IMG/VR virus record: IMGVR_UViG_3300005077_000586
Location: 1-31,803 of that record
DNA length: 31,803 nt
Strand: one strand, 5' to 3'
Source: a virus
Taxonomy: Duplodnaviria; Caudoviricetes
The notes below the pieces were generated by a model. That model had not been told where the DNA came from and made no database searches. It worked only from the letters and a program-made list of their open reading frames with translations. This document shows positions 2,336 through 20,486 of this stretch, piece by piece (within the stretch, counting starts at the first letter, position 1; each line of letters begins with the position of its first letter). Position numbers and translations under genes: made by a program.

Positions 2336-2506
2336 ATGGAAGTATTACTTGTAATATTGTTTATCATATGTTGTGCACTAACAACTATTCTAATCTTTGT
2401 TGGACAAGAACTTAGTTGCGTCAATGATGAACTCAGATATGTCAAAAGAAAACTTGATAAATGCAATGATTTACTTGATGAATATTATGGATATGAAGAC
2501 CTGTAA
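2336..2506 (+). CDS. Small membrane protein (MEVLLVILFII...)
   Basis: ATG immediately after the IS right end; N-terminal hydrophobic helix and coiled-coil-like tail. Confidence 0.55.
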   Translation: MEVLLVILFIICCALTTILIFVGQELSCVNDELRYVKRKLDKCNDLLDEYYGYEDL

Positions 2507-2520
2507 ACAAAGAGAATAAT

Positions 2521-2799
2521 ATGACACCACTAGTATTTCTATCTATAGTTTTAGGGCTCTTGCTTATATGTGCCGTAAGTTCGTTATATGTTGCAATAAA
2601 AATAATAACTACATTAAATGTAAATATTATATCTAAAGAGGAAGAAATATATTCTATTTTGCAATGTGCCCGTATTCAAAATGTTGATTTATCGACCTAT
2701 TATAAAACCTGTACACATCTAACAGATGATGAAAAATTAAAAGTATTAGCAGACATATACAAGCCATTAGGATTGGATATTAGTATGGAGGAAAAATAA
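2521..2799 (+). CDS. Hypothetical protein with N-terminal TM helix
   Basis: ORF track; hydrophobic N-terminus; operon packing. Confidence 0.6.
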   Translation: MTPLVFLSIVLGLLLICAVSSLYVAIKIITTLNVNIISKEEEIYSILQCARIQNVDLSTYYKTCTHLTDDEKLKVLADIYKPLGLDISMEEK

Positions 2800-2921
2800 T
2801 GGAAATAGTAGCTCTAATAGTCGTGTGTATATTACCTATACTAACAATGGTATCAATATATAATCTTCTTGTTGCTGACGATAGACGATTTTGGAACAAT
2901 AATGATGATGAGGAAAACTGA
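2799..2921 (+). CDS. 40-aa small membrane protein MEIVALIVVCILPILTMVSIYNLLVADDRRFWNNNDDEEN (not in ORF track)
   Basis: GGAGG RBS; TAATG overlap upstream and TGATG overlap downstream. Confidence 0.6.
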   Translation: MEIVALIVVCILPILTMVSIYNLLVADDRRFWNNNDDEEN

Positions 2922-3982
2922 TGACGCCCGAAGTATTTGCCGATATTTTAAAGGAAGTAGAACTTGAAACAGTACACCGTCAAGATTTTGGACGTTATTC
3001 TGTATTCTGCTATTCGGACAAGTGTGCATATAAGGAACTTTGGAATGAAGTAAATATGCGATGTCGTGGCATTGTTATTGATACTGAAACATTGGAAGTT
3101 GTTTGTCGCCCTTTCGATAAGTTTTTCAATGTAGGTGAGCATCCAACTACTTCGCACACTGTTATTGATGCCAAGTTACTAAATACTCCATTTGAAATAT
3201 ATACTAAGCATGATGGAAGTTTAATAAATCTTTGGTATCATAACTGGGAATGGAACGTTTCCAGTAAGGGCTCTATGACTTCTGAACATGCCAAATATGC
3301 AAAAGAAAAAATATTCAACAAGTATGACCTTCGACAACTACCAACTGGATATACGTATATTTTTGAAATGATTACACCTTGGGATACTAAGGTAGTAGAT
3401 TATAATGGAATGGATGATGTCATTCTGCTGTCTATGTTTCATAATAGCTGGGAATGTATTGAACTTCCACGCAAAGAAGTAAATGAAATAGCTACATATG
3501 CTGGATTCAAGTGTGTTGATGTCATAGAAAATATAACAAACCTTGGTGATATTTATAACCGCATAGAAAAAGGACAGGAAGGATTCGTAGTAAGATTTAG
3601 TGACGGTCTTAGGTTCAAGGCCAAGTCTGATTGGTATATCAGGGCTCACAAATATATTAGTTTTTTGAATCCAAAACATGTATTAGAAATGATGCGAAAT
3701 AATACAGTGGCTGAAATGATTGATATGTTGCCACATTATAAAACTAAACTACAAGAAATAATCGATAGTTTGACTAAGATTATTCAGGAAATAAAGGATA
3801 AAGTAAATGAAGAATGGGCGAAAGTAATAGACCCAAATAATCATAAAGCTTGTGCTATACAGTTTGAACATTGTGAGCATCCAATACGTTCTATACTATT
3901 TTGTAGAATGCGTGGCAAAGATGAGAATAAAGCACTGTATAAGGCTGTAGAACTAAAACTAGTACAAAAAAAGAGTAAATAA
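2921..3982 (+). CDS. T4 Rnl1 (RnlA)-like RNA ligase
   Basis: Motifs CRGIVID, RPFDKFFNVGE, motif I KHDGSL, FE, EGFVVRF and motif V FKAK. Confidence 0.85.
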   Translation: MTPEVFADILKEVELETVHRQDFGRYSVFCYSDKCAYKELWNEVNMRCRGIVIDTETLEVVCRPFDKFFNVGEHPTTSHTVIDAKLLNTPFEIYTKHDGSLINLWYHNWEWNVSSKGSMTSEHAKYAKEKIFNKYDLRQLPTGYTYIFEMITPWDTKVVDYNGMDDVILLSMFHNSWECIELPRKEVNEIATYAGFKCVDVIENITNLGDIYNRIEKGQEGFVVRFSDGLRFKAKSDWYIRAHKYISFLNPKHVLEMMRNNTVAEMIDMLPHYKTKLQEIIDSLTKIIQEIKDKVNEEWAKVIDPNNHKACAIQFEHCEHPIRSILFCRMRGKDENKALYKAVELKLVQKKSK

Positions 3983-3985
3983 ATA

Positions 3986-4123
3986 ATGAAAACAAACACA
4001 TGGACTATACCAGATAAAAATTTAATAATGTTGCGAGCAATAAAGCGAGGTAATGTCATTCGTAAACTTTGTGGTTTTCCTCCATCTAATATAACAAAGA
4101 ATATTATTAAAAAATATAGCTAA
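3986..4123 (+). CDS. 45-aa basic hypothetical protein (MKTNTWTIPDKNLIMLRAIKRG...; not in ORF track)
   Basis: ATG 3 nt after the ligase stop; the ORF fills the gap exactly. Confidence 0.4.
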   Translation: MKTNTWTIPDKNLIMLRAIKRGNVIRKLCGFPPSNITKNIIKKYS

Positions 4124-4149
4124 AACAAACTAATGGAGCTAATATAAAT

Positions 4150-4647
4150 ATGCCATTAACATATATACTTGGTGCCACTGTAATAATATTATCGCTTATG
4201 TTAATATTGGTTACATTGTATATTATAAAAAATAGATCATTAACCATACTTCGATACAAAAAAGAACTTCAAGAATGGGAAAATACAGCATTTTACTATT
4301 ATCTAATAGTTAATCACGTAGATGGAATAGATAATAGAGATACAAATGATACCCAACCACCACCATCTATTCCAAGCGATAAAATATTACAAACATTAGA
4401 AAGACAGGCTCGAACTTTAGTTCAAGGTGCCTGGGAATATGGATTTCCAGCATTGAGAAATGTTACTATAGACCACGTATATTGGGAACGAGTAGATGAA
4501 ACTGATGAAATAGAAATAAATGACCTGTATTGTGAAAAACTATATTGTAACCATGAATCAATTCTACTAAAAATAAAACCAGAACATTTATATTGTCAAC
4601 CGTGTTGTTTTCCTAAACTTGTATTTTTCCGCAAATTAATCTGGTAA
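4150..4647 (+). CDS. Hypothetical membrane-anchored protein
   Basis: GGAG RBS; N-terminal TM helix. Confidence 0.6.
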   Translation: MPLTYILGATVIILSLMLILVTLYIIKNRSLTILRYKKELQEWENTAFYYYLIVNHVDGIDNRDTNDTQPPPSIPSDKILQTLERQARTLVQGAWEYGFPALRNVTIDHVYWERVDETDEIEINDLYCEKLYCNHESILLKIKPEHLYCQPCCFPKLVFFRKLIW

Positions 4648-4653
4648 AAAAAA

Positions 4654-5385
4654 ATGCCTAAAATATCACTAATAACACTGTCCAAAAATGATAATAAGGA
4701 GGAACCAAAACGTTTCTCTTTATTTGTTGATAGTCTATTGCGCCAAACTGAGCAAGATTGGGAACTTATATTTCTTGACTGCTCTGAAGACGGATGTCAC
4801 TTCAAAGCTCCAAAACATAAAAATATTCGTCAAGTGAAATATACAATAAAAAAGAAGGAAGACTTCAATCCTGCTTATCTACGTAATACTGGCGTATTAC
4901 TTGCGACTGGAGAAATGATTTGTCATACCAATACTGACTGTGTATTGGCACCTAACTTTTTAGAAGTAATAGTATCTAAATGTAAGAAGAATATATTAGT
5001 GCAGTGCGAACGTCGTGACACTACAGAAAAGGAGTTCAAAGGATTCTCTACATTAGCCTTAGTTGACTCTATTGCGACATCCTTGAAGGAAAAAGGGCGT
5101 GGATGTTGTGGTGACTGTCAAGCCATGCTACGGGAGCAATTCATTGATATTGGTGGCTATTTTGGCCTTATTTGTAATGGAATGGCATACGAAGGTAAAT
5201 ACAAAGAACATGCCTTTAGGGAAGATACATATCTACAATATAAAGTTAATAAAACCAACTGGGGTAAATATAAGTTTTCAGAAGAAGAGCATGGAATAAA
5301 AGAAATATGGGTAAATAATAAAACTTGGATTGTTCACTTGTGGCATCCAGAACGCAGAGCAATACAGGACTGGCGCAGTTCATAA
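4654..5385 (+). CDS. Glycosyltransferase family 2 (GT-A fold)
   Basis: KISLI, SLLRQT.QDWELIFLD, AYLRNTG, NTD (DxD variant), IGGY, RED, HLWH. Confidence 0.8.
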   Translation: MPKISLITLSKNDNKEEPKRFSLFVDSLLRQTEQDWELIFLDCSEDGCHFKAPKHKNIRQVKYTIKKKEDFNPAYLRNTGVLLATGEMICHTNTDCVLAPNFLEVIVSKCKKNILVQCERRDTTEKEFKGFSTLALVDSIATSLKEKGRGCCGDCQAMLREQFIDIGGYFGLICNGMAYEGKYKEHAFREDTYLQYKVNKTNWGKYKFSEEEHGIKEIWVNNKTWIVHLWHPERRAIQDWRSS

Positions 5386-5390
5386 ATAAT

Positions 5391-5470
5391 ACCACTTGTT
5401 ACCAATTGGCAAAACTTGTCACCTGTCCGCAAAAGATGTTACCTGGAATAATAACTTGTTACCAGTTGGC
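5391..5470. repeat. Four tandem degenerate 20-bp units, consensus approximately AAAACTTGTTACCAGTTGGC
   Basis: ACCACTTGTTACCAATTGGC / AAAACTTGTCACCTGTCCGC / AAAAGATGTTACCTGGAATA / ATAACTTGTTACCAGTTGGC, with TGTYACC at an exact 20-bp period. Confidence 0.85.
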
Positions 5471-5509
5471 GTACTAAAATAATGCCGACTAAATAAACGG
5501 AGGCCAACG

Positions 5510-6094
5510 ATGCCTAAAGTTTTATCTACACTAAAGACATTTAGTACTAATCCTCGTGAACTATACGAAAGTGTTACTAAAAAATGGACATTTTCATCTG
5601 CTGGAAATTCCAAATATTCACAAGTTATCCCATATTGTCTGATAACTGACGGCGACGATTATGTTACCTTTAATGTAAATGCTACTATTGATTTTGGTAT
5701 GTTATGTTATCCTACAAAGACTAAATTTTGGGAAAGAAAAACAAAACAAAATCTTATAAAAACATTTATAGGCAACATAAAAGAACGATTTTTGGCAACT
5801 TTTCAAGAGTTGAATATTCCTATCAGCAAAATAATAATTTCAGATACTCATAGAGCAGTTTATAGAGTTGATAGAAGTGCCGTGCATCCAATTCTTGGCA
5901 TTGTATTACCAAGTGATATTCTTGTAAAGTTCAAGCCTATCGAAGGTGTTCAAGTAGTTATTCTATCCAAAGAACACCTTGTTCAACTTGGAATGCTAAA
6001 TGCTGGTAGTACACTTTTATCTCGTGCCGTTGCGTATTTGATGGCAATGAAAGAAGTAGATTTTGGACAAAACAGGGAAATAACAAATGTCTGA
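5510..6094 (+). CDS. Hypothetical protein (weak resemblance to Nudix-like phosphoesterases through QVIPY)
   Basis: GGAGG RBS; no Nudix box recognisable. Confidence 0.55.
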   Translation: MPKVLSTLKTFSTNPRELYESVTKKWTFSSAGNSKYSQVIPYCLITDGDDYVTFNVNATIDFGMLCYPTKTKFWERKTKQNLIKTFIGNIKERFLATFQELNIPISKIIISDTHRAVYRVDRSAVHPILGIVLPSDILVKFKPIEGVQVVILSKEHLVQLGMLNAGSTLLSRAVAYLMAMKEVDFGQNREITNV

Positions 6095-6623
6095 AACTGA
6101 AAAACTTTATTACATAAACAAATGGAAGCCTTTTATTAGAAAATTGGCTTTTAGATATAAAAATACTATTGCATCAGTAGATGATCTTATTAGCGAAGGA
6201 GTTATAGGTGTACTAAAGGCACTAAAAACATATAATGAACAAAGAGGTAATATAGATTCTTACATATGCAAATGTATAAAGTCACAGATTATTATTTGTG
6301 CTATAGAAAATGGCTCAATGTTATATTGTCCAGCTGGAACTTTTATTGGTAATAAAAACCATATTCAATACCAGCATTCAAGTGTACCTATAGATTATAA
6401 TGATGACACAATAGTTGATGATAAACGTTTATCAACTGAAGAAATGACCGATGCGATGGATGAGATTACTACTTTTGACAACACTAATATTGCGACACTA
6501 TATTATTTAGAAAATAAAACATACAGAGAAATCGCCGACATAAAAGGTATGCAGTTGAGTCATGTATACAATCATCTGTCTATTTTAAAGAATATAATGA
6601 AGAGGAGAACAAACAATGGCTAA
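6087..6623 (+). CDS. Phage RNA polymerase sigma-70-family factor (regions 2 and 4 only)
   Basis: Region 2 DDLISEGVIGVLKALKTYNEQRG; region 4 HTH YYLENKTYREIADIKGMQLSHV. Confidence 0.85.
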   Translation: MSETEKLYYINKWKPFIRKLAFRYKNTIASVDDLISEGVIGVLKALKTYNEQRGNIDSYICKCIKSQIIICAIENGSMLYCPAGTFIGNKNHIQYQHSSVPIDYNDDTIVDDKRLSTEEMTDAMDEITTFDNTNIATLYYLENKTYREIADIKGMQLSHVYNHLSILKNIMKRRTNNG

Positions 6624-6789
6624 GTCAGGAATGCAATCAGATAAGGATGCCGCAGCACTAAATCGTTCTCTAACAGAGCGCCCATGTCCAAAGTGTAAGG
6701 CAGTTATGAAGCTTGCAATGAAGTGGCCAAAGAAGACAATGGTATTTTACTGTCAAAACTGCGGATATGAGGAGAAGAAGCGTGCATAA
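6616..6789 (+). CDS. 57-aa zinc-ribbon protein (CPKC...CQNC; not in ORF track)
   Basis: AGGAG RBS; MAKSGMQSDKDAAALNRSLTERPCPKCKAVMKLAMKWPKKTMVFYCQNCGYEEKKRA. Confidence 0.75.
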   Translation: MAKSGMQSDKDAAALNRSLTERPCPKCKAVMKLAMKWPKKTMVFYCQNCGYEEKKRA

Positions 6790-7762
6790 GATATTGATTG
6801 TCGGACCTTATAGAGATGGAAATGATATAAGTCTTCATCGTGCCGAAGTTGGTATACATAAAGCCTTTATGCAACTTGGCTATGAAACTTGGTTATACGA
6901 TCATCGAAAAGGCGATGTATGGTATAATGACCAAATAATTATAAGTTCAAGCGATGCGTGGGAGCCAGATTTTCTTATCAAAGCAGGAGTTACAAACTTT
7001 GATTTAGTACTGGCCGTAGGACCTGGGCTTCCAGACAATATCATTCACAGTAAATGGTGGGAATCTCTATCTGGTTTGAAATGCCTGTGGACAAGTGAAC
7101 CAGTACGCCTTAAGTCTTATTTTGACCGAATGGCTACTCAAAAAGACTCATTTGACATGTTCTTTACGTTTGATGAAAGTGAAATACCAATCTTCACAAA
7201 AGAGTTGGGTATATTAAATATACACTGGATACCACAAGCTTATAATCCTGACTGGTATTATCCAATAGAAGTACAAAATAAAATGGATTATTGTTTTTGT
7301 GGAAGTATTGGTGGCAAATGGTCCAGCAGAGAACATTTTTTAAGTCTCGTGGCCAGTTGATGTAAGAAACACAATAAAACTTGTAATTTCGCCACTGTAT
7401 TTGATGCTCCGAAGGTAAATAAATTCTATGCATCGCATAAGGCTGTTCTAAATCTTGGACTATCAGTCGATGGTCAAACTCATTCACTTGAAGCATTTGG
7501 ACTGCAACAGAGATGCTTTGAAGGCATTGGCTCAGGACGTATAGTCATCACAAATAGAATACCCGAAGGGAGCAATAAGCTATTTGTTCACGGAGTTAAT
7601 ATATTATTCTATCGTAGTTTGCAGTCATTAGATGATGCATTGGAATATGTTCAACATGATGAAGTGCGGACACAGATGGAACAAAATATTCTAAACATAA
7701 GACATTTACATAGTTATAATAATAGGGTGCGAAAGATAATAAGTTTGGCGACACAATACTAA
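6782..7762 (+). pseudogene. CgeB/YkvP-like GT-B glycosyltransferase interrupted by an in-frame TGA at 7358-7360
   Basis: GTG start (MHKILIVG). The frame continues 133 codons past the TGA, with YASHKAVLN, QRCFEGIGSG, LF..G and HSYNNRV, typical of the family C-terminal domain. Confidence 0.75.
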
Positions 7763-7775
7763 AAATCTTTGGCAA

Positions 7776-7806
7776 AAATAAACAAGTCGTGCAAAATAAT
7801 ATATAC
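7776..7806 (+). promoter_or_regulatory. Putative phage promoter, copy 1 (AAATAAACAA-N8-AAATAATATA)
   Basis: The same bipartite motif and spacing occur at 8391 and 16812, each at the start of an intergenic or leader region. Confidence 0.65.
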
Positions 7807-7809
7807 TAT

Positions 7810-8345
7810 ATTAGTAACAATAGATTTTTCGATGTAACAAACACTTGTGTCAATAGAAAGGTAGGTCGGCTATATCGATACTCAGCCCAGAGATGGGTAG
7901 TGTAGCAAGAAGCTATGACAGGCGCTGCTATTCCTCGATGAACATCAGTTGAGGGAAGTGCGACAAAAAAAACAATTAAATGAGTACGTGCTAAGGCCGT
8001 GAGACACGGGGATCATATGGATGCATATTATTTATTATTTCACCTGGATGAACTCTGTAGTTAGTTCCGGGTTAATATGCTTAGATACAGGATGGTGTTC
8101 ATCCTGGTTTAAGTCTAAAACTAATATGTATACTCCACTTGTTCCTGCAAGTGGACTGTCGGTCCTCCGACAGTTTGTTCTAATCAGGTATTCACGGGAG
8201 AAACTCCCGATGGTTATCGTCGCATGAGTCACAGTCTGTTCCAGACTGCTGCTTGTTCAGAGCAACAAGCACGACATCACATAAGGAATAATCTGACGTG
8301 ACCAACACGTTGACCAGTAGTGTATCAAAATAATACATTCCCTTT
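7810..8345. other. Highly structured non-coding region (candidate ncRNA and/or replication origin)
   Basis: No credible ORF. About ten hairpins, e.g. 7885-7898, 7997-8009, 8088-8106, 8134-8155, 8155-8174, 8195-8209, 8232-8248, 8250-8271, 8296-8310. Confidence 0.65.
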
Positions 8346-8390
8346 GCAAACTCGATATTATTTTCGGCGTCCGCCAAAAAAACTTCTGCG

Positions 8391-8420
8391 AAATAAACAA
8401 AGACGCCGAAATAATATACA
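8391..8420 (+). promoter_or_regulatory. Putative phage promoter, copy 2
   Basis: AAATAAACAA-AGACGCCG-AAATAATATACA, about 50 nt upstream of the protease ATG. Confidence 0.65.
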
Positions 8421-8469
8421 CTTAGATGTGTCCTTGTGATTTTCTACCATCATAGTGGAGGATTAATAG

Positions 8470-9621
8470 ATGAATAAACTTCTTGTAATTCTTATTGCTA
8501 TTTCTTCGGTTACTATTTCCTCTTGTGGCTTTGTAAGAAACACAACTGTATCTGTTGAACAACAACAATACAATGAGTTAATTCGTCCAATTGTCCGGCT
8601 GACTGGCCAAGTTATTATGCCAGATGGACGAGTTACAGGTTGGCATGGTTCTGGCGGAGTTATTTATAGTCAGCCAAATGCTACTAACTCTGGTTATGAT
8701 AACTATGTTCTTACATGCAATCATTGTGTTGAATGTCCAGTTTTTGACAAGAAAGCTTCACTAGATGTTGCACGAGTAACTGGTTATAAGTATGAAGTTA
8801 ATAATATTGAAATATTTGATAACAACATGTCTCCTAGAAATCTTACTGGCTTTGTTGTAGCACAGAGTAATAATAATATTTTTATGCAAGATTCTCGTGG
8901 TTTCTTATATGTTGATGTTGGAGAGTCTATTGATACAGAATCTGGACTATTGGCTGGAGAAGATTTAGCTCTAATTAAACTCGATACTACAGAAAAATTA
9001 TTCGCAGCAAAAATTTTGCCACCAGATAAAATAGAAACGCTTGTTAGATTCACAAAAGTTCGTGTTGTTGGATGTGCACTTGGTGGCTACCCATATAATA
9101 CTTTTGGAGAAATTACACTAACCATTCCAAAGACTAACTACATGGGAATCAATGCTCCATTTAGTCCTGGTAATAGTGGTGGACTTTGTTACTTAGACGA
9201 TACACATGAATTTATTGGCATTACTAATGCAGGAGTACGTGGAGAGAGTCATTTGGGACTGGTTCGTCCATTGTCACATATTTATCCTTGGCTTGCTAAA
9301 GTAAATCATCAGTTCATATTCGATACTTCTATCTCTAATGAGGATAAGTTTGCTATTATTCTTGAAGATGTTAGTTTGGCCAACACAAATCGCAAAGAAG
9401 AACGAGAATCTCTTGTTAAGGAAGTAGTCTTTTTGCGAGCATCGGTGGCTCAGATAGTCGAACAACTCAAGTTACTACAATCTCAAATAAGTGCACTACA
9501 ACAACAGGTCAATAAGTCCACTGAAGCAACTCCTCCCACACAAGAACTTCCAACTTTTCCAGTATTTGAAAATCCCCCAACAACAAATGATAATGTGGAA
9601 AATCTTCCTCAGAGGTTTTAA
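8470..9621 (+). CDS. Trypsin-like (S1) serine protease, probable lipoprotein, with C-terminal coiled coil and Pro/Thr tail
   Basis: Triad TCNHC / EDLALI / PGNSGG; signal peptide with ISSC lipobox; GGAGG RBS. Confidence 0.85.
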   Translation: MNKLLVILIAISSVTISSCGFVRNTTVSVEQQQYNELIRPIVRLTGQVIMPDGRVTGWHGSGGVIYSQPNATNSGYDNYVLTCNHCVECPVFDKKASLDVARVTGYKYEVNNIEIFDNNMSPRNLTGFVVAQSNNNIFMQDSRGFLYVDVGESIDTESGLLAGEDLALIKLDTTEKLFAAKILPPDKIETLVRFTKVRVVGCALGGYPYNTFGEITLTIPKTNYMGINAPFSPGNSGGLCYLDDTHEFIGITNAGVRGESHLGLVRPLSHIYPWLAKVNHQFIFDTSISNEDKFAIILEDVSLANTNRKEERESLVKEVVFLRASVAQIVEQLKLLQSQISALQQQVNKSTEATPPTQELPTFPVFENPPTTNDNVENLPQRF

Positions 9622-9623
9622 TA

Positions 9624-10046
9624 ATGCGAGCAGTAGACCCAGGTGCAAAAGCAATAAGTGAACATTTAAATCATCGCATGTTGGCCACTATATTAGCCCT
9701 GCAAGAAGTCCAAGCAGCGTTTAGTGACCCAGATGGAGTTGAGCATTTGCTGGGTCGGCAACTATTTGAGTTTGGACGTGCGACATTAGAACATTTTCCT
9801 TTTGTAGAATTTAATATTAACATAGCATATGATTATTCGGTTTTCATGAATGAGGATAACAGAAATGGACTATTAATAATTTATCAGCTTCAAGATGATG
9901 TATGGCTGTCATTTATAAATCTTAATAAAATATGTAGAGAACATAATATTACTGTTAGTTTTAGTGGCAAACAAGTTTCAGATCCTTCTTTTGATGGAAA
10001 AGTACAATGCGAAAATTTAGAAATAAAAAATACGATGATGCAATAG
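9624..10046 (+). CDS. Hypothetical protein
   Basis: ORF track; tight packing. Confidence 0.55.
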   Translation: MRAVDPGAKAISEHLNHRMLATILALQEVQAAFSDPDGVEHLLGRQLFEFGRATLEHFPFVEFNINIAYDYSVFMNEDNRNGLLIIYQLQDDVWLSFINLNKICREHNITVSFSGKQVSDPSFDGKVQCENLEIKNTMMQ

Positions 10047-10396
10047 CTGATAGTCTAACATTTATTGCAGAAACTGCCAATGTAAATGGATGGAGCGCTG
10101 GCTTTGGTTTAGCTGTAAGTTCGGATATTTTAGAAACTGCAATAGAAATAATTAATTACATACAAGATGAGATGGATGTTGAGCCACTCCATGTAATGTG
10201 TGACGAAAGTGGTGTTATTCATATGGAATATGATATATTGGCATTGACAGAAGAATTTACTGTTTCACTTGAGATATGCAGTAAAAACATGATAGATATG
10301 ACATTAACAGACCATCAAAATAATATAAATTTTTATACAAATAATATTCAAACAAAGTCAGCAATGTCATTTTTAAGAAGGATAATTCATGGCTGA
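10007..10396 (+). CDS. Hypothetical acidic protein
   Basis: ORF track; overlaps its neighbours. Confidence 0.55.
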   Translation: MRKFRNKKYDDAIADSLTFIAETANVNGWSAGFGLAVSSDILETAIEIINYIQDEMDVEPLHVMCDESGVIHMEYDILALTEEFTVSLEICSKNMIDMTLTDHQNNINFYTNNIQTKSAMSFLRRIIHG

Positions 10397-10625
10397 GTTA
10401 TTTGGTTGGGTAAGTAATCTATTATTTATTACTGGTGCTATTATATTGGCACGACATAATGCTATTTTATCACAGAAGCTAAACTTGGTGGCAAATATTA
10501 TTTGTTTCTTCGCAGGAGTATTTTCGGGACTATATTTTATTATGTTTATTTCGGTATTTCTGTCTATTGTAAATATATATGGAATATATTCGTGGAATAA
10601 GGAGCGACACAATGGAAAGACGTAA
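10389..10625 (+). CDS. Small 3-TM membrane protein (PnuC/SWEET half-size-like)
   Basis: GW...L.ITG, N, and C-terminal NIYGIYSW motif; AGGA RBS. Confidence 0.6.
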   Translation: MAELFGWVSNLLFITGAIILARHNAILSQKLNLVANIICFFAGVFSGLYFIMFISVFLSIVNIYGIYSWNKERHNGKT

Positions 10626-10929
10626 GTTTTTGGGTGGTTTATTTGCAGTCCCAGCAGCGGCCATCGGAGTATTGTGCACCAAAATATTTGGACAAGAAGT
10701 GCCAAAGACAGAGTGTGAAAAATTAGTACAGTGTGCCGAAAATCTATGTATTGCACCAGCGAATCCACATATAGCCGCTCTCCAGGTATCTATATCTGAT
10801 ATGCCAAGCAATGGATATTTTTCCAATGAAGCTAAAATAGGTGGCATTATAATAGAAGCTGTTACAAAAGATGGAATTTCTCACAAGTATAGTTTAATAG
10901 ATATTTTGACTGCATTGGCAAAGAAATAA
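10612..10929 (+). CDS. Protein with twin-arginine (Tat)-like N-terminus
   Basis: AAGGAG RBS; MERRKFLGGLFAVPAAAIG. Confidence 0.65.
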   Translation: MERRKFLGGLFAVPAAAIGVLCTKIFGQEVPKTECEKLVQCAENLCIAPANPHIAALQVSISDMPSNGYFSNEAKIGGIIIEAVTKDGISHKYSLIDILTALAKK

Positions 10930-10941
10930 TAAAGGTGATAT

Positions 10942-11319
10942 ATGCCTATTTATAATTTTATATGTAACGATGATGAGTGTGGAAATCAACAGGAATATTG
11001 GGAGTCTATTAAGAATGGTCCACCCAAGAATGTTATATGCTCCAAATGTGGCTCTACTATGTATCAAGAACTACAATGTAATTTTGAGCTTAAGGGAGAC
11101 GGCTGGCCAGGCAAAGATATAAAGTCAGACACTCAAATGGGTCAAGCAGCAGAAAAGGCCGAAGAGTTTTTGTCAAAAGAAGATGATAAGCAAAAAGAAA
11201 ATAAAGAAGTATTATCTAAGCGTCGTCTTGGTAGGCGAAAATTTGCTGAATGGTCTCAGCACAATAAGCCAAAAGTTGATAGGTATATGAAGAGAAGAAG
11301 TCCAACTAAAAATGTCTAA
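10942..11319 (+). CDS. FmdB-family zinc-ribbon protein
   Basis: MPIYNFIC...C and CSKCGS, followed by FELKGDGW. Confidence 0.8.
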   Translation: MPIYNFICNDDECGNQQEYWESIKNGPPKNVICSKCGSTMYQELQCNFELKGDGWPGKDIKSDTQMGQAAEKAEEFLSKEDDKQKENKEVLSKRRLGRRKFAEWSQHNKPKVDRYMKRRSPTKNV

Positions 11320-11554
11320 AAACAATATAAAAAGAGCCATTTGTGTAAAATGTGGCAAACATAATATTATAAAAATTGAGGATATTGGTGGGCATTATGA
11401 AAACGTAAAAGAATTTTTATGCGTCAAATGTTGTAAAGCCGAAAACTGGCAAAGTAAAATGTGTACAAAATGTCCTGATATAAATGTATGTAGTGGAAAA
11501 TGGAAAGAATTATTTATAGAAGAGATTACCAAAAGGACACAACCAAATGATTGA
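11312..11554 (+). CDS. Small Cys-rich zinc-binding protein
   Basis: Three CxxC motifs. Confidence 0.6.
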   Translation: MSKNNIKRAICVKCGKHNIIKIEDIGGHYENVKEFLCVKCCKAENWQSKMCTKCPDINVCSGKWKELFIEEITKRTQPND

Positions 11555-12269
11555 CCCGTATAATAATTATCATATAGAAGATGTTGAGATTATTTGTACA
11601 CGTTCGGGTGGCATTTCAGCAGTAGAAGGACTAATGTTATATAATGCTGTAATGTCGGCAGGAAAAGACTGTAATGCTATCGAGTTTTCACCAAATGCTG
11701 GTTATAGCACTATTTGTATGGCACTTGCTCTGCGTCGAATGGGAAGTACAAAAAAGATAGCAACATTTGAAATTGACCGTCGAATAGAACAAAAACTAAC
11801 AGAAAACATAGCTAAACTTGGTCTACAAGATTATGTAGATATTATTTGGGGTGATGCATTAGTAGAAGTGCCAAGGTATATAAAAGCACATGGAATAGAA
11901 GATAGAGTAGATGTCTTATTTATTGACTCATGTCATTCTAAGTCATTTGCAGAAGCATATATAAGAGATATTTTCCCGCTATGCAACTGTGCATTAGTTA
12001 TGGTTCACGATATAGGGGCATTAGGACTAAATAATCACGATGATTTCAACGAAACATTATTTCCAAACGATAATAATTGTGGAGAGTATTTAGCGCTGAA
12101 GTCTTATTTACGTTGTAAATATGTTCTAACACACGCTGTTTATGGAGGACAACACGAAGCATCTTGTAATTTGCCAGTAAATAAGATGGCATATGATAAA
12201 CTTAGTGACTCTGTTGGATATACAGTTCCTATTGATATACCGCCAAAAAGTTTAATATTTTTCATTTAG
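11547..12269 (+). CDS. Class I SAM-dependent methyltransferase (Methyltransf_24-like)
   Basis: IEFSPNAGYST, TFEID, GDA, LFIDSCH, VHD. Confidence 0.8.
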   Translation: MIDPYNNYHIEDVEIICTRSGGISAVEGLMLYNAVMSAGKDCNAIEFSPNAGYSTICMALALRRMGSTKKIATFEIDRRIEQKLTENIAKLGLQDYVDIIWGDALVEVPRYIKAHGIEDRVDVLFIDSCHSKSFAEAYIRDIFPLCNCALVMVHDIGALGLNNHDDFNETLFPNDNNCGEYLALKSYLRCKYVLTHAVYGGQHEASCNLPVNKMAYDKLSDSVGYTVPIDIPPKSLIFFI

Positions 12270-12278
12270 GAGGATACT

Positions 12279-12566
12279 ATGCAAAATGATGGAGTGATTA
12301 TTTGTACAGAAGATGAGGATGAACAAAAATATGACGGAAAAGTGCATAAGTGTAAGATCATATTTACAGATGAAGATACTGGTGCGAGTTTGGTAGCAAT
12401 TTTACCATCCACTAAAGGAGAATGTCCTTGTTTGGTTTTTGCAAAACGAGTTGGAATTGTAGATGATTATAATATTAAACAATCAGTATTTATTCTTGCG
12501 ACTGATAAAAAAGACCAATATGTAAATATTTCAACTAAACAACTAAATAAACTACTGAGAAAATAA
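12279..12566 (+). CDS. Hypothetical protein
   Basis: AGGAGG RBS. Confidence 0.6.
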   Translation: MQNDGVIICTEDEDEQKYDGKVHKCKIIFTDEDTGASLVAILPSTKGECPCLVFAKRVGIVDDYNIKQSVFILATDKKDQYVNISTKQLNKLLRK

Positions 12567-12577
12567 GGAGATATATA

Positions 12578-12772
12578 ATGTCAAACTCAACTGAGCGTGT
12601 AAAGTTTGGACGTGCTCTTCGTAGTCTGTTCCGATTTGTTCAAAACGATGGTCTATCACAGACACGACAGGTATTTCGCACTTATGGCCCACTATTTGGA
12701 GTAACAGAGTGGCGAGCACGCAAGCTTTTTGGATCATTCGGCAAGGCTCGTGATTTTGCATATAAGGCATAA
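12578..12772 (+). CDS. Small basic hypothetical protein
   Basis: AAGGAG RBS; Arg/Phe-rich. Confidence 0.6.
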   Translation: MSNSTERVKFGRALRSLFRFVQNDGLSQTRQVFRTYGPLFGVTEWRARKLFGSFGKARDFAYKA

Positions 12773-12775
12773 CTT

Positions 12776-13447
12776 ATGATTATAGCTACGCCAAACTCAA
12801 CTACATATGTAGATAAGAACTTTGCGATGGCTCTAATGGCACTACAAAAGCCAGAAAAGTGGCGAATGCTAATGCCATCTGTGTTGCCGGTAGGAGCCGC
12901 ACGAAATGAAGTGTTTCGAAAAGCCCGTGAAGCAAAAGAAGAATGGATATTATTCCTTGATTATGATAATACGTTTCCACCAGATATTATTGATATTCTA
13001 ATGAAGGTTCATGAGAGCACTGGAGCCGACCTAACTGGCGGTGTTTATTTTGAACAAGGATGGCCAAACTATCCAGTTCTTGGAAATATAAATAAGGATC
13101 TATTTTCATATCGTGTAGCACTTCAAGATGAAGTTCTAAAGGAAGGTTCGGTATTTGTGTGCGATGTTATTGGTATGGGATGTTCTTTAGTTCATACTCC
13201 AAAGTTTTTTGAATATCCAGATGATTGGTTTGGATACACTCTCGACGACAAGAAATGGGATACTGAAGACATGAGAGCATTTGTACTAATGAAACAACGT
13301 GGAATAACAGTTGCTGCAACTACTTGTGGCATCGGACATTCTGGCACTTATATTTTTGGAGCACACGACTGGGCACTTGGCAGAAAAGTAATATTCGAAA
13401 AATACAGCGAACAACAACAGAAGACTAACACTGGACTGGAGAAATAA
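12776..13447 (+). CDS. GT-A fold glycosyltransferase (GT2-like)
   Basis: ARN, LFLDYD, GMGCSLV, TEDMRAF, GH.G. Confidence 0.8.
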   Translation: MIIATPNSTTYVDKNFAMALMALQKPEKWRMLMPSVLPVGAARNEVFRKAREAKEEWILFLDYDNTFPPDIIDILMKVHESTGADLTGGVYFEQGWPNYPVLGNINKDLFSYRVALQDEVLKEGSVFVCDVIGMGCSLVHTPKFFEYPDDWFGYTLDDKKWDTEDMRAFVLMKQRGITVAATTCGIGHSGTYIFGAHDWALGRKVIFEKYSEQQQKTNTGLEK

Positions 13448-14592
13448 TGTTAAAATATCTAATAATCTTATTGTTCGTGGCCACTCTATTGCCTGCACAA
13501 AGTTTTGAATATGACTTTGGTGCGAAAGTAGAAGTTGGTGCCATCTCAAATAGTGCGAGAGAAAGTGGTGGCAATGAGGTTAGTCTTGGTGATTTTTTGT
13601 TCAATCCAAGATTAGCACTTCGGTATCCAACGAATATCGAGTGTGTTTCTGGACTATTTATAAAAGCAGATTATGTGCCAGATATGTGCCTGCTAAACTT
13701 CGCCGATGAAGATAAAGTCAACATGCACAATCAAAATTGGTTACGTGCAGATGGATACGTGAGTCGTCCAGACTTGTTATTTGATATCAATATTTTATTT
13801 ACGTGCGATATGCATTTGCGTGCAGGTGCATTTATGACTTCTGGACTAGAGCCATTGAGCAAATCAAGTTATTATTTACTAACGCCTGCACCAATGTTTT
13901 TGACTCAACATTTTGATAAGGGTTTTGAAATAGCATTAACAAAAGATTGGTTGAAATTGAAGGCATCTGTAGTAGATGGAGACTGGACCGTAGGTCAAGT
14001 GTCAGTTTTTACACCAAGTGATAGTCGTGCCAATTCTACCCCAACCGTGGCAGGAATGGCAGAAATAGATGTTTTGAGTTGGACTAGTGATAAGTCGCTT
14101 ATCTTTGGGGTCACTGGCAACTATGGAGATATAGGTTCATATCCTGGACAAAAACGTTGTACTGACAATTATATATTCTACACTGGTAGTAGTACAGAAT
14201 TATTCGGAGCCGAGTTATCATCAAGGGTTGGATATTATATCGCAGTACGTAATCCAAAAGGAGATGGTTCTGGCGTTCACGTAGACCAAATAGATACAGA
14301 TGGATATACTTTAGAGTTATCATATAGCAAAATAGAAACAGGACAGGGCAAAATAGGAGTTCATGGCAACTACTGGGTTATGCACAACGAAGGAGGAGTA
14401 GACGGCGAAATATGGCCATATGCATGTTCTAAGATGACTGGCTATGGAGTTGTTGTTAGATGGACGGAAATGTTGAATGTAGATATTCTTTATTCTGAAT
14501 TTGGATATTCGCATATTACTGCCGATGAAGAAGTTATTTATGGTGAAAGTGAATTTGATATATATGTCATTAGCACAGGAATAAACTTCTGA
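13447..14592 (+). CDS. Putative outer-membrane beta-barrel (porin-like) protein
   Basis: Cleavable signal peptide (LPA-QS), alternating amphipathic beta-strands rich in Gly and aromatics, C-terminal ISTGINF (beta-signal-like terminal Phe). Confidence 0.6.
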   Translation: MLKYLIILLFVATLLPAQSFEYDFGAKVEVGAISNSARESGGNEVSLGDFLFNPRLALRYPTNIECVSGLFIKADYVPDMCLLNFADEDKVNMHNQNWLRADGYVSRPDLLFDINILFTCDMHLRAGAFMTSGLEPLSKSSYYLLTPAPMFLTQHFDKGFEIALTKDWLKLKASVVDGDWTVGQVSVFTPSDSRANSTPTVAGMAEIDVLSWTSDKSLIFGVTGNYGDIGSYPGQKRCTDNYIFYTGSSTELFGAELSSRVGYYIAVRNPKGDGSGVHVDQIDTDGYTLELSYSKIETGQGKIGVHGNYWVMHNEGGVDGEIWPYACSKMTGYGVVVRWTEMLNVDILYSEFGYSHITADEEVIYGESEFDIYVISTGINF

Positions 14593-15482
14593 TGCAATCA
14601 ATAGCAATATCACAAGTATATAACGAAGAATTATTTGTATCAAAATCATTATCTTGGATATATCCACTGGTAGACAAGATAGTTATATCAGAAGGGCGTC
14701 TTACACCACATGGCAACTTGCCACAACATTCTTCTGATAATACACGAGATGTTATTCAAACATGGATTTATAATAACGATGCGCAAAATAAGGTTGTATT
14801 AGTAGATGCATTTGAAGGTTCACCAAATAATCGAGAAAGTGCGGAGGCAAATAATAAAAACTATCTATTGTCCAAGTCTGGAATAGAAAATGGAGACATG
14901 TTGTTTATCTTAGATGCAGATGAATTTCCAGAGCCAGAAGGATTTATATTTATTCAAAATAAGTTTAAAGATGATGATACAATAAGACATGTTCCGCTTG
15001 GATGGTATAACTTTGTCTATAATCTAAGACAAGGATTTAAATATTCTATTGATGGTCGATTTTTTAGGTGGACAACTGGATGTAAGTTTAAATCTACTAA
15101 TCATCTAATAAATTCTAATCAAGAAGATTTATCAAAAGATTACAAGTTTTTTGTTCCTTTTGAGCAGTCCAAATGGTTACACTTGAGTTATGCTAAACAT
15201 CCTAAACTTATTAGAGAGAAAATAATTGGTTTCGCACGTCAGTCTCTAATAGATTGGTACAATTATTGTTACTTGATAGGTGCTATAAATATAGAAAAAG
15301 CCTATGCAAACAACACGGCATTGTCGGCACCTCATGGCTGGAAGGGCGGTGGCTTTTGTGAGGGTTTAGATGTTAAACTTGAGCCATTTACAGGTGAACT
15401 TCCGGCATCAATACGTGACTTAGCATTTATAGATTATACAGATTTTATAAAGACAAATATAAATTCACTAGTCATAAGATAG
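14592..15482 (+). CDS. GT2-like glycosyltransferase
   Basis: VYNEE, VDKIVISEG, SSDNT, ILDADEF, HLSYAK. Confidence 0.8.
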   Translation: MQSIAISQVYNEELFVSKSLSWIYPLVDKIVISEGRLTPHGNLPQHSSDNTRDVIQTWIYNNDAQNKVVLVDAFEGSPNNRESAEANNKNYLLSKSGIENGDMLFILDADEFPEPEGFIFIQNKFKDDDTIRHVPLGWYNFVYNLRQGFKYSIDGRFFRWTTGCKFKSTNHLINSNQEDLSKDYKFFVPFEQSKWLHLSYAKHPKLIREKIIGFARQSLIDWYNYCYLIGAINIEKAYANNTALSAPHGWKGGGFCEGLDVKLEPFTGELPASIRDLAFIDYTDFIKTNINSLVIR

Positions 15483-15491
15483 GAGTAAATA

Positions 15492-16268
15492 ATGTCTATC
15501 GACGTATATAGCAGTGGAGGCATTGGAGATGCATTGATTGTTATTTCTAAAATAGCTAGATTGCATCGTATTACTGGTGCTATGTTCAACTTCAGAATGT
15601 ATGGCAAGCATCGTTGTTATGAAAAGCCTTGTAATGAACTAATGACACTGCCAAAGTTTTTAGATGCATCATCGCACTATGTACTTAGTGATAATCCAGA
15701 AATAGATGCAAAGGCATTTGCCCATAGTAATGGTTCTATATACATGAATACTCGTGTAGATGATATAAATAATCCAGTTGAGCCATTTTATGATATACTA
15801 CAGGATACAATTCCACTAATTAATAAGCATATGCCATCTAATATTTGTATTCAAGTATTAGCAGGAAGACCAAATGATGGCAGTGCACGAATGGTGACAG
15901 CGACGGCCATCCGACAATTATTTAAATCGATACGACATCGTAATATAGTTTTGGTAGGACAGGATGAAATTTCTACACCAGAAGATTTCTATGAGCCCGC
16001 ACAAAATAAAATTATAAATTTATGTGGACGCACAGGAACTATTTCACAAGCATTGTGTATCGTGCGACATTCTCATGCATTCGTTGGACAAGATGGAGTT
16101 TTAGCTTATTATGCCATGATGATAGGCAAAAGAGTAGTAGTTAATTGGCATGTTCCAACATTGCCTGGACATTATATGCATCCATCGTGGGTAGCACATA
16201 CCAAGTCACTGTATGGCGGTTCAGCACTTTATAACTTCGATGAAGATACGATCAAATTTTTGAGTTAA
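15492..16268 (+). CDS. GT9 (heptosyltransferase)-like glycosyltransferase
   Basis: GGIGDAL, IVLVG, INLCGRT, FVGQDG (variant of FIGxDSG). Confidence 0.65.
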   Translation: MSIDVYSSGGIGDALIVISKIARLHRITGAMFNFRMYGKHRCYEKPCNELMTLPKFLDASSHYVLSDNPEIDAKAFAHSNGSIYMNTRVDDINNPVEPFYDILQDTIPLINKHMPSNICIQVLAGRPNDGSARMVTATAIRQLFKSIRHRNIVLVGQDEISTPEDFYEPAQNKIINLCGRTGTISQALCIVRHSHAFVGQDGVLAYYAMMIGKRVVVNWHVPTLPGHYMHPSWVAHTKSLYGGSALYNFDEDTIKFLS

Positions 16269-16271
16269 ATT

Positions 16272-16817
16272 ATGTCTAAAATAGAAATAAAAAGAACTGA
16301 CCAATGGGACTTTGAATATATTAGCCAAGAAGTGTTGGCTGGACACTGTGGAAATACGGTTCTTCAAATAGGTGCTCGTCCAGGTAAAGGCTGGTTGGCC
16401 ACCTGGGATTGTTTCTGTAATGCCGGGTTCACACAGCACGACATTTTAGAAATTTGGGAAAAGAATGTTACAAAATTACAAGAAATAGATACTGGTGGCT
16501 CTGTAGTTCTTGGCGATGTTCGTAAAATAAAAAATATAAAATTGCCACTAGAACAATATGACTGGCTTGTATGGCAACACGGGCCAGAGCACATTCGCAA
16601 TGATGAGTTCAAAAATATACTTCCAGATTTACTACAAAGATGTAATATTGGACTTCTTATTGGTTGTCCAAATGGCACCTGTTACCAAGATGCCTTTAAT
16701 GGTAATCCGCACGAGGAGCATGTTATGCATTGGCAACCAGAAGATTTTATAAAACTTGGCTTTAATGTCGTGGTTGCTCACACTACTAATATAATCGGAT
16801 GGATTTACAAGAAATAA
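16272..16817 (+). CDS. SAM-dependent methyltransferase-like protein
   Basis: VLQIGA..G, LEIW, GDVR, YD, PEH, GNPHEEH. Confidence 0.7.
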   Translation: MSKIEIKRTDQWDFEYISQEVLAGHCGNTVLQIGARPGKGWLATWDCFCNAGFTQHDILEIWEKNVTKLQEIDTGGSVVLGDVRKIKNIKLPLEQYDWLVWQHGPEHIRNDEFKNILPDLLQRCNIGLLIGCPNGTCYQDAFNGNPHEEHVMHWQPEDFIKLGFNVVVAHTTNIIGWIYKK

Positions 16818-16840
16818 ACAAACTCATTGAAATAATATAC
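16812..16840 (+). promoter_or_regulatory. Putative phage promoter, copy 3
   Basis: AAATAAACAA-ACTCATTG-AAATAATATAC. Confidence 0.65.
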
Positions 16841-16847
16841 TCTGATG

Positions 16848-17288
16848 TAGATAGGTATGCTGACAGACAGATAGACAGATAGTAATACAGGAGGATAATA
16901 TGATACTAAAAGTAGGAATAAGAACAGGCACTAATGATACATCTATAAATAAGACTAAAATAATATGGAGTTATTTTCCTAGATGTATAAGCTTGGATGT
17001 TTTGGGCGTTGATACATATGAGTTCAAAAATTCATATATAAATCAATATACAGTATATAAAACGTGGAACGTGAAACAAGAGAAGATTACTATTGATGGA
17101 GAAGACGGATTACGTTATTTTGCTAATCTAATAAGATTATTTCTTGATACTAATAATAAGTCAATAGTAGAGGTGCTTGTTAATCCAGATGCTGCATTTA
17201 TTTATATTTGCGATGATGATGGTAAGACTATTGACCGTATTTATTTTTAATTAAATAATAATCAAATTAGCATACCTATCTATTTTTT
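16848..17288 (+). repeat. 14-bp perfect long-range inverted repeat (16848-16861 / 17269-17282) enclosing one gene, followed by T6
   Basis: TAGATAGGTATGCT is the exact reverse complement of AGCATACCTATCTA; the pairing extends with G-U wobbles. Confidence 0.85.
16900..17250 (+). CDS. 116-aa hypothetical protein ending in YICDDDGKTIDRI
   Basis: AGGAGG RBS; own promoter motif upstream. Confidence 0.75.
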   Translation: MILKVGIRTGTNDTSINKTKIIWSYFPRCISLDVLGVDTYEFKNSYINQYTVYKTWNVKQEKITIDGEDGLRYFANLIRLFLDTNNKSIVEVLVNPDAAFIYICDDDGKTIDRIYF

Positions 17289-17717
17289 ATGCGAATACCA
17301 CAATCCTGGGAACAAACATGGTTATCTATAATAGATGTAATAGCCCAACGAAGCAAAGACCCAAATACGCAAGTTGGTGCGGCGCTTATATCTCCAGATA
17401 ATAGAATAGTGCATCTTGGCTATAATGGTTTTCCATTCGATATTAGTGATCCAGAAGAGCGTTTGCAACGTCCAACTAAGTATAAATATGTTGTACACGC
17501 AGAAGCTAATGCAATACTAAATAGCAAGACAGATCTACATGGATGGACATTATATGTGACTATTCCACCATGTGCAGCTCGTGCCAAACTTATTATTCAG
17601 TCTGGTATTAAGAGGGTGATCTATCAAAATGCACCAAATGCTTCATCTATGTTGGATTATAAGTTTTCACAAGATTTACTAAATGAAGCTGGTATAGAAC
17701 TAATACAAGGAGTGTAA
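17289..17717 (+). CDS. dCMP deaminase (second Zn-ligand Cys replaced by Arg)
   Basis: RSKDPNTQVGA, GYNGFP, HAEANAI, PPCAAR, IIQSGIKRV. Confidence 0.85.
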   Translation: MRIPQSWEQTWLSIIDVIAQRSKDPNTQVGAALISPDNRIVHLGYNGFPFDISDPEERLQRPTKYKYVVHAEANAILNSKTDLHGWTLYVTIPPCAARAKLIIQSGIKRVIYQNAPNASSMLDYKFSQDLLNEAGIELIQGV

Positions 17718-17718
17718 A

Positions 17719-18171
17719 ATGCCGTACATTAAGCCAGAAGCTCGTGTTGAATTAGATACTTATATTGATAAAATTGTTGAACAATATCCACAAGATGTAT
17801 CTTATGAAGATATCTGGCGTGTCTTGTGCACTCTATTGGGTGCCAAACAAGATATTTCTATAGTTTTAAATCAATCGGTTATGATTGAAATGTCATCAAG
17901 ACTTGGTGCAGTTCTTGCCATCAGATCAGTTGGTGATTTAAACTATAGTATTTCAAGACTCATTTGGGAACTATGGTTCCAGAGAGAAATAAGCTACACC
18001 AAGATAGATACAATAGTTGGACTATTAGATAGACTAATAAAACAATTTCCGAAATGTTCTTCAACGCTTAGGTGCGTGCAATTTGAGATTTACAGGCGAC
18101 TTGCCGCAAATTACGAAAATGAAAAAATGAACACACATGGGGATGTTTTTATAAATAATAAAATATTATAA
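17719..18171 (+). CDS. DUF6899-like phage protein
   Basis: MPYI...R, GDLNY.I, E.YRR..A.YE.EK....GDV. Confidence 0.7.
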   Translation: MPYIKPEARVELDTYIDKIVEQYPQDVSYEDIWRVLCTLLGAKQDISIVLNQSVMIEMSSRLGAVLAIRSVGDLNYSISRLIWELWFQREISYTKIDTIVGLLDRLIKQFPKCSSTLRCVQFEIYRRLAANYENEKMNTHGDVFINNKIL

Positions 18172-18180
18172 TATAAATTT

Positions 18181-19128
18181 ATGAAACCAAAAAACTATTG
18201 GGCATCTATTTTTACAAAAGATATGTTAGTTGGCGCATTCAATGCAGGTTCTGGATGTGCAGATATTGGTAAATTATTTGACGTTAATTTGCATACAGTA
18301 TACAAATATGCAAAAATACACGGCGTTGATCATTGTCCTAGTGGAACATTTATTAAAACATGCGACTGTTGTAATGAGCAGTATGAAGCAATTATTAAGC
18401 ATGGCATTGGAAGAAGACAAAGATTTTGCTCTAGTAAATGTCGCACACGATATTGGCAATTACAAAATCCAGAGCTGTATAAACAAATGGTTAGAAAAAG
18501 TGTATTAAAATTACATCCAATATTTTGTAAACATTGTGGTAAAAAAATTGAAGATAAAGATCGTAAGGCTGGTAAAACTATATGTTCTGTAAATTGCACA
18601 AAAGCTACTCGCAAAATAGGTTCCATAAAAAGACGCAAAAAAGCCAGCAAGGCATTTGAAGAATATAAATGCAATATTGGATGTCAAATGTGTGGATATA
18701 AACAATACGGAGGATCATTAGATTTTCATCACATAGATCCAAAACAAAAGGATCGTAGAATTGGCAGTACCCACTTGACATCTTTGTCAAAAATATCTAA
18801 AAGTGAACTCGATAAGTGTGTATTATTATGTAAAAATTGTCATTATTATATTCATCATATTATGAGGCAAGATATTAATGCTTATAATGAAATAATATAT
18901 AAAATAACTAATGAGGACCAAAAGTGCGATGAAAATGGGGAAGTTTTTCTTCCAAAGGAGTATAATATCAATGTTACACCAGAAGGTCGGGAAAATATTA
19001 TCAGCGTTAATACTCCTGATATGTCTGTGCCCGATTGGCTGCTCAAGCTTATCGGTGACCCTAACTCCGGAACATGTCAAGGAGGCTGTTGCCCGGATGG
19101 CTGCCGTTACAAAGACGGCCACGTATGA
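18181..19128 (+). CDS. HNH homing endonuclease with HTH and zinc-finger repeats, plus a C-terminal extension
   Basis: RFCSSKC and ICSVNC fingers; GCQMCGY...LDFHHIDP..K...ELDKCVLLCKNCH...H. Confidence 0.85.
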   Translation: MKPKNYWASIFTKDMLVGAFNAGSGCADIGKLFDVNLHTVYKYAKIHGVDHCPSGTFIKTCDCCNEQYEAIIKHGIGRRQRFCSSKCRTRYWQLQNPELYKQMVRKSVLKLHPIFCKHCGKKIEDKDRKAGKTICSVNCTKATRKIGSIKRRKKASKAFEEYKCNIGCQMCGYKQYGGSLDFHHIDPKQKDRRIGSTHLTSLSKISKSELDKCVLLCKNCHYYIHHIMRQDINAYNEIIYKITNEDQKCDENGEVFLPKEYNINVTPEGRENIISVNTPDMSVPDWLLKLIGDPNSGTCQGGCCPDGCRYKDGHV

Positions 19129-19228
19129 TCCACCATCTTCTCTTGAAATGCCACTATTCTTGAAACTTAATGCTGACGCATGGCAAGAGTTGGCAGAATA
19201 TTATGGAGTCGCTACAGATGCCAAATAA
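18971..19228 (+). CDS. Small lipoprotein
   Basis: AAGGAG RBS at 18955-18960; MLHQKVGKILSALILLICLCPIG-C lipobox. Confidence 0.65.
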   Translation: MLHQKVGKILSALILLICLCPIGCSSLSVTLTPEHVKEAVARMAAVTKTATYDPPSSLEMPLFLKLNADAWQELAEYYGVATDAK

Positions 19229-20484: not shown

Positions 20485-20486
20485 TA

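Follow-up and report, generated by a model that had tools for sequence, protein, structure and literature searches.

A candidate structured RNA of about 570 nt in a gene-free gap of a tailed-phage contig

A gap without called genes in a phage contig probably specifies a functional, lineage-restricted structured RNA of about 570 nt, encoded on the plus strand (7814–8385, both ends being predictions). That a single RNA runs across the whole gap is, in our estimate, evenly balanced. The 210 bases originally flagged (7810–8020) would likely be the front part of this larger RNA.

The window, by which we mean the whole stretch of DNA analysed, is an IMG/VR record of 31,803 bases with a completeness estimate of 21%. 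Its gene content includes an RNA ligase, a sigma factor, RecA, a holin, an RRXRR (IscB-type) protein and several glycosyltransferases, and every gene scanned lies on the plus strand. The gap (7763–8469) has on its 5′ side a glycosyltransferase-like gene (6767–7762, plus strand; Pfam DUF3880 and Glyco_trans_1_2), whose stop codon at 7760–7762 marks the start of the gap, and on its 3′ side a trypsin-like peptidase gene (8470–9621, plus strand; Trypsin_2, E 7e-9), called the protease gene below.

Putative promoter, predicted fold and extent of the candidate RNA

A motif of ~33 bases occurs four times in the contig. Three copies, at 7776, 8391 and 16812, are intergenic, and the fourth, at 22199, sits within the ORF 21791–22288. 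Copies 1 and 2, which are 615 bases apart, bound a gene-free span of ~620 bases. Copy 1 (7776–7807, plus strand; repeat family D1) reads as a putative promoter of sigma-70 type, TAAACA and TATACT separated by 17 nt, with a transcription start predicted near 7814; copy 2 (8391–8422, plus strand) would serve as a promoter before the protease gene. Given that a scan for sigma-70-type sites found 8 where 3.7 were expected, the argument for promoter function is the repetition of the motif rather than its agreement with the consensus.

The initial annotation had proposed a promoter-driven structured phage RNA in 7810–8020, and all of the stems that it listed were recovered in the predicted plus-strand fold. 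This fold includes a four-way junction domain (7879–7986; closing helix 7879–7884/7981–7986), which is predicted on the plus strand only. It holds the stem GCCCA-GAGA-TGGGT with its GNRA loop (7885–7898; mean pair probability 0.97), a second hairpin at 7900–7919 that includes TAGC-AAGAA-GCTA (7903–7915; pair probability 0.83 for 7902–7916), and a long hairpin at 7923–7962 with its loop at 7940–7947. The stem TTCCTCG..TGAGGGAA, placed by the annotation at 7931–7957, corresponds to a 9-bp helix of this long hairpin (7931–7939/7948–7956; pair probability 0.96), and the A-rich linker that the annotation described is an 18-nt segment at 7963–7980. A weak AU-rich hairpin (7824–7862, plus strand; pair probability about 0.7) lies 5′ of the junction, and the hairpin CCGTG-AGA-CACGG (7997–8009, plus strand; pair probability 0.73) lies 3′ of it. 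The 5′ half thus carries marks of tertiary folding, namely the GNRA loop, the A-rich linker, G-U pairs and a possible loop-loop pair, in which loop 8095–8099 is complementary to loop 7940–7947 over 5 bp, extendable to 11, at a level that does not reach significance (P 0.10).

The stems are present, and the flagged interval as a whole had a z of only −1.72, with 15 of 200 shuffles folding as well. The core at 7876–8012, whose boundaries were picked after the fold was seen, had a z of −3.20 on the plus strand (4 of 200 shuffles) and −0.12 on the minus strand (86 of 200). We conclude that the core folding signal is real but modest, since the ends were chosen post hoc and since a cruder scan found 4 of 106 contig windows of 150 nt at z ≤ −3.1. 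The accompanying statement that no ORF follows the promoter holds for ORFs of at least 60 aa starting in 7810–8020; however, a 68-aa plus-strand ORF begins at 8021.

Position 8020 did not stand as the end of the unit: structure and conservation continue to about 8380. The interval 7810–8400 had a z of −4.31 on the plus strand and −3.27 on the minus strand. Next to the core is a predicted three-way domain on the plus strand (8021–8131; closing helix 8021–8030/8122–8131, arms 8042–8072 and 8079–8114), and 8015–8160 folds better on the plus strand (z −5.27) than on the minus strand (−3.81). It is followed by a hairpin array at 8134–8271 (8134–8155, 8155–8174, 8187–8218, 8232–8248 and 8250–8271), over which folding is symmetric (8130–8275, z −4.80 on plus and −4.99 on minus); of the 20 perfect hairpins in the contig with 7 bp or longer stems, 5 lie in 8088–8271. 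The 3′ region (8272–8385) has weak hairpins and is still conserved, and folding of 8270–8385 leans to the minus strand (z −0.45 on plus, −1.74 on minus). What survives of the original proposal is a putative promoter-driven RNA, supported indirectly by the motif repeat, a core that folds on the plus strand only, conservation above that of genes and the lack of an Rfam match; its extent changes, in that the unit is probably ~570 nt long and includes the hairpin array.

Conservation and distribution

Two wastewater runs from one study contain related phage sequence. Four contigs from this related phage, at 93–97% identity, span 7865–8013, 8031–8233 and 8242–8380, and differ from the window at 4 of 150, 5 of 150, 6 of 199 and 10 of 139 letters (25 of 638 in total). 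Counted without overlap, 20 of 488 letters differ in the element (4.1%); for 11 coding pieces the figure is 293 of 2163 (13.5%; Fisher p 1.7e-10), so that divergence in the gap is about one third of that in coding genes; this comparison uses the 11 long pieces among the 16 listed of 48, leaves out two in-element and three short partial matches, and is biased in that words from 7400–8800 served to find the runs, which makes close matches there more likely, and in that the pieces may derive from several phages. Within the 7400–8800 query, matches fell in the gap and none in its coding 60%. Over 2400–22390, the related phage was represented by 26 and 20 contigs from the two runs, mostly less than 90% alike. 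The lower divergence of the gap compared with coding pieces points to selection at the nucleotide level across the whole gap.

Contig depth in the gap was like that of the coding pieces and both runs are flagged as probably DNA; hence, the conservation is no demonstration of an RNA. None of the runs recorded as RNA contains the candidate stretch. A reading of selective transcription, based on four of four contigs falling in 7865–8380 and none in the flanks, was dropped because the wider comparison found the related phage genome-wide at similar depth. The listed substitutions, which come from near-identical pieces only, broke predicted pairs in 3 of 10 cases against 4.25 expected (P 0.27), no significant preference for the predicted fold. 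Pairs at variants 7957 and 8069 are kept by wobble on the plus strand, one insertion falls within the A-rich linker and one change falls in a loop. The variant at 7895 breaks the GAGA hairpin unless it is compensated at 7888 (differences near contig ends are unlisted), and the variant at 8309 breaks a weak hairpin.

The clade is sparsely sampled: the nearest proteases are 36–48% identical, and the best relative of the sigma factor is at 41%. Alignment of the protein at 23385 identified G031, a complete phage of 168,570 bases, to which 25 window ORFs were matched at 25–54% identity with their order largely kept. In the syntenic slot of G031, near 121 kb, a ~120-aa ORF follows the glycosyltransferase gene and precedes a protease-like ORF (read by eye), and neither nhmmer nor the models R2 and R3 matched the candidate RNA in that genome. 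Given that the slot there holds an ORF and yields no RNA match, it is variable by this comparison, and the RNA would not be core to the clade. The slot appears to behave like an accessory-gene site.

Comparison with G031 also touches on the surrounding genes. An in-frame TGA at 7358–7360 interrupts the glycosyltransferase-like gene at 6767–7762, the frame going on with its Pfam match, and the G031 counterpart is unbroken; the TGA is a nonsense change, a site of read-through or a sequence error. Across 4654–27768 the window is dense in glycosyltransferase, methyltransferase and other sugar-pathway-like genes, mostly common to G031, which suggests surface or DNA glycosylation.

Searches for homologues of the RNA were empty. 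With blastn, phage and plasmid records gave only chance matches of 20–46 letters. Four patterns taken from the RNA returned from IMG/VR, respectively, no loci, 119 loci (best nhmmer E 0.18), 13 loci, none related, and no loci. The promoter pattern returned 29 loci, and 19 of them searched whole, together with 11 of 11 protease records, gave only matches of 14–29 letters. A protease-neighbour search (19 viral and 34 metagenome loci) found no RNA homologue, two protein queries of GTDB genomes found none, models R2 and R3 found none over 36 sources, and models run over 32, 32 and 45 records matched only the window itself. R2 and R3 are single-sequence models and weak, and empty homologue searches do not show absence. 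A literature search, to which the sequences themselves are invisible, found no description of the candidate RNA. For the catalogue of candidate viral structured RNAs in PMC10690425, whose alignments may bear on novelty, six short words from the RNA had no match in the three of its six supplements searched.

Comparison with known RNAs and alternative readings

The initial annotation could not match the interval to tRNA, tmRNA, 6S RNA or introns, and cmscan found no credible Rfam match: it returned one snoRNA elsewhere at E 2 and RAGATH-25 over the promoter, whose 18 bits fall short of the threshold of 49. No tRNA or tmRNA was found in the window, the RF00023 search was empty at E 10, and tRNA-like ends and a tag ORF were not found. 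GOLLD (RF02032) gave no hits at E 10, with seven candidates scored and the conserved 3′ domain unmatched. ROOL (RF03087) gave no cmscan match, and a separate single-family search was empty, its control having failed to score. ROOL and GOLLD are described as phage-encoded, often near tRNAs, cage-forming and of unknown function (10.1101/2024.12.08.627333). The candidate shares with them a phage origin, a length of several hundred nt, many helices, an A-rich linker, a possible loop-loop contact and the lack of a known function. In contrast to them, it matches no model, has no tRNAs nearby in the contig and is narrowly distributed. We conclude that the candidate would resemble the large orphan phage RNAs in its working and is a member of no family tested.

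The symmetry of the hairpin array is consistent with a different arrangement, which we nonetheless consider unlikely: two convergent RNAs, one on the plus strand from promoter copy 1 (about 7814–8130) and one on the minus strand running leftwards from about 8385, whose GGA loops would sponge a CsrA/RsmA-type protein. The interval 8130–8275 folds as well on the minus strand and 8270–8385 folds better there, 3 of 4 paired variants in 8270–8350 retain their pair in the minus-strand fold, and a weak promoter-like site lies on the minus strand at 8440–8411 (9 of 12 positions). That site, however, differs from the phage's repeated motif, and no minus-strand terminator was found. GGA occurs in 4 of 10 minus-strand loops (P 0.0008 for GGA), but the triplet was chosen after inspection of the loops and the value is 0.35 if any triplet is allowed. 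CsrB, RsmY and RsmZ, as well as the TwoAYGGAY RNAs, proposed to be Csr/Rsm sponges (10.64898/2026.09.22.753630), are like the candidate in having short stable hairpins in a row whose loops repeat a triplet, which in the candidate is GGA on the minus strand. Unlike these sponges, the candidate has no match to CsrB (RF00018) at E 10, it shows no excess of ANGGA (1 found, 1.8 expected), and its GGA loops are on the strand opposite to the good promoter.

T4 and ColE1 have promoter-primed origins of replication, and, as in the T4 R-loop origins and ColE1 RNA II, a promoter is followed here by a non-coding, hairpin-rich stretch. The gap might accordingly be read as a transcription-primed origin, with a pre-primer RNA from promoter copy 1 and the hairpins acting as loading signals in single-stranded DNA. 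The hairpins consist mainly of Watson-Crick pairs, either strand folds well as DNA (z −4.8 and −5.2), and strong nucleotide conservation would also suit a DNA element acting in cis. However, the gap contains no iterons and no DnaA-box-like site, the cumulative GC skew climbs along the window without a switch, and the 5′ core requires G-U pairs and folds on the plus strand only. In G031 the skew changes direction near 72 kb and at the ends of the genome, a long way from the slot near 121 kb; this is weak evidence, because skew is tied to the coding strand. The G031 slot also lacks the element. The idea in the initial annotation that the RNA primes the neighbouring hairpin array found no support: there are no iterons and no skew switch, the G031 slot lacks the element, and a reverse transcriptase (PF00078) was found in neither of two genomes, namely our contig, 21% complete, and the complete G031, itself without the RNA. 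The small ORF in the G031 slot and the lack of a reverse transcriptase in G031 count against a primer or an origin. In these two genomes there is accordingly no linked reverse transcriptase gene of the kind that marks RT-associated template RNAs (retron, DRT, UG27). We regard an origin as improbable.

The gap could instead be a long cis-regulatory leader of the protease operon, in which local folds compete with long-range pairings. Such alternatives exist, in the form of a 7-bp helix between 7958–7964 and 8219–8225 and of a strong 16-bp inverted repeat (8355–8371/8402–8417; z −5.29) that overlaps promoter copy 2 and may adopt a cruciform or, as RNA, a hairpin. T4-type phages have promoter-linked stem-loops, to which we liken this repeat. 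We also found no clean plus-strand terminator between the candidate RNA and the protease gene. Against a leader, a separate copy of the promoter motif lies ahead of the protease gene at 8391, the searches matched no riboswitch or leader family, and G031, which lacks the element, keeps this gene order. We give this reading about one chance in ten.

A diverged or domesticated ribozyme that current models miss, either an RNase P RNA or domain I of a group II intron, is more doubtful still. It is suggested by short motifs that look like those of known ribozymes: a stretch at 7951–7964 that we take to be CR-I-like, with its 7-bp long-range partner at 8219–8225, and a GAGA hairpin followed by a loop-loop pair and, at 8187–8218, a D5-shaped hairpin, a presumably intron-like order. 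Class A and B RNase P RNAs have a P4 helix with a bulged U, a CR-V and the order P1-P2-P3. In the helix list, read by hand, the P4-like helix has no bulged U or CR-V-like stretch, the P1-P2-P3 order is absent, and the D5-shaped hairpin has no catalytic triad; in addition, one variant alters the A at 7957. The RNase P look-alikes were followed up because class A RNase P RNA is present in G031 (L228:10407–10724, plus strand; 165.7 bits against a threshold of 100, among 20 tRNA hits), so that the clade does carry this RNA, and because diverged forms have been reported in CPR bacteria (PMC8172020). However, alignment of the candidate to the G031 RNase P RNA did no better than shuffled sequence (under four scoring schemes, between 80 and 249 of 300 shuffles scored as high), and model R2 scored at background on the G031 RNase P locus and on four intron loci, though none of the latter showed the motif class expected. 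The class A and B models (RF00010, RF00011) and the group II models (RF00029 for domain V/VI, RF01998 and RF02001) gave no hits at E 10 with controls working, and the other group II D1–D4 models, run by cmscan only, gave no match. The candidate therefore differs from bacterial RNase P RNA in lacking a model match, a significant alignment and catalytic-core features.

Finally, an mRNA for the 68-aa ORF (8021–8227) with structured untranslated regions is very improbable: a GGGGA precedes the ATG by 9 nt and 2 of 3 listed internal variants are at third positions (read by hand), but the ORF is uncalled in a collection of 15 billion proteins, has no Atlas hit and crosses the strongest of the hairpins, and divergence here is much lower than in coding sequence.

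Proposed role and other observations in the window

The reading that we prefer, to which we assign roughly an even chance in its complete form, is a stand-alone plus-strand RNA of ~570 nt that likely acts as a decoy. A host polymerase of sigma-70 type would start near 7814 at promoter copy 1, and the product would be an untranslated RNA that ends or is trimmed near 8380; the RNA would be a separate unit because promoter copy 2 restarts the protease operon. The predicted fold comprises the four-way junction domain, the three-way domain and the row of stable hairpins, and the GNRA loop, the A-rich linker and possibly the loop contact 7940–7947/8095–8099 may give it a compact shape of the kind that ROOL and GOLLD have. 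The stable hairpins form a putative protein-binding surface with repeated loops: UCC occurs in 4 of 10 plus-strand loops of 8015–8390 (P 0.008 for that triplet, 0.27 if any triplet is allowed). No complement of at least 13 nt, as an antisense target might provide, was found elsewhere in the contig. Given that absence, and given stable stems with repeated loops, protein binding is favoured over antisense pairing, and we therefore adopted the decoy reading, under which the RNA would bind a host RNA-binding protein. Taken by itself, the claim that the RNA is a protein decoy during infection is possible, with the balance against it.

A more speculative and rather doubtful extension is that the gap represents a new class of ~570-nt multi-domain phage RNA, carried as a self-contained promoter–RNA cassette at an accessory site of large phages. 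Such an RNA might be compact or oligomeric through loop-loop and A-minor contacts, and might titrate a host RNA-binding protein or nuclease, as an RNA-only means of host takeover unrelated to ROOL and GOLLD. To our knowledge, few large structured phage RNAs have been described (ROOL, GOLLD), none of them of known function. If the extension were true, an unrelated class with its own promoter, at a site where a relative has a protein gene, would suggest an exchange of large RNAs in the manner of accessory genes, and the 570-nt unit would provide a defined construct on which probing, cryo-EM and pull-down could be done. For now this carries limited weight, the RNA being a candidate from a single lineage with an uncultured host.

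Three further features of the window lie outside the gap. Upstream of the RRXRR (IscB-type) gene (1030–2306) is a hairpin-rich stretch (z −1.57 for 1040–1189) that may be its omega RNA, and for which no Rfam match was found. The ORF preceding the sigma factor (5510–6094, 194 aa) had no relatives among 5.8 billion proteins in a word-index search. The ORF at 25458–25763 contains a long rod-like fold at 25501–25650, with a z of −4.78 and none of 200 shuffles as low.
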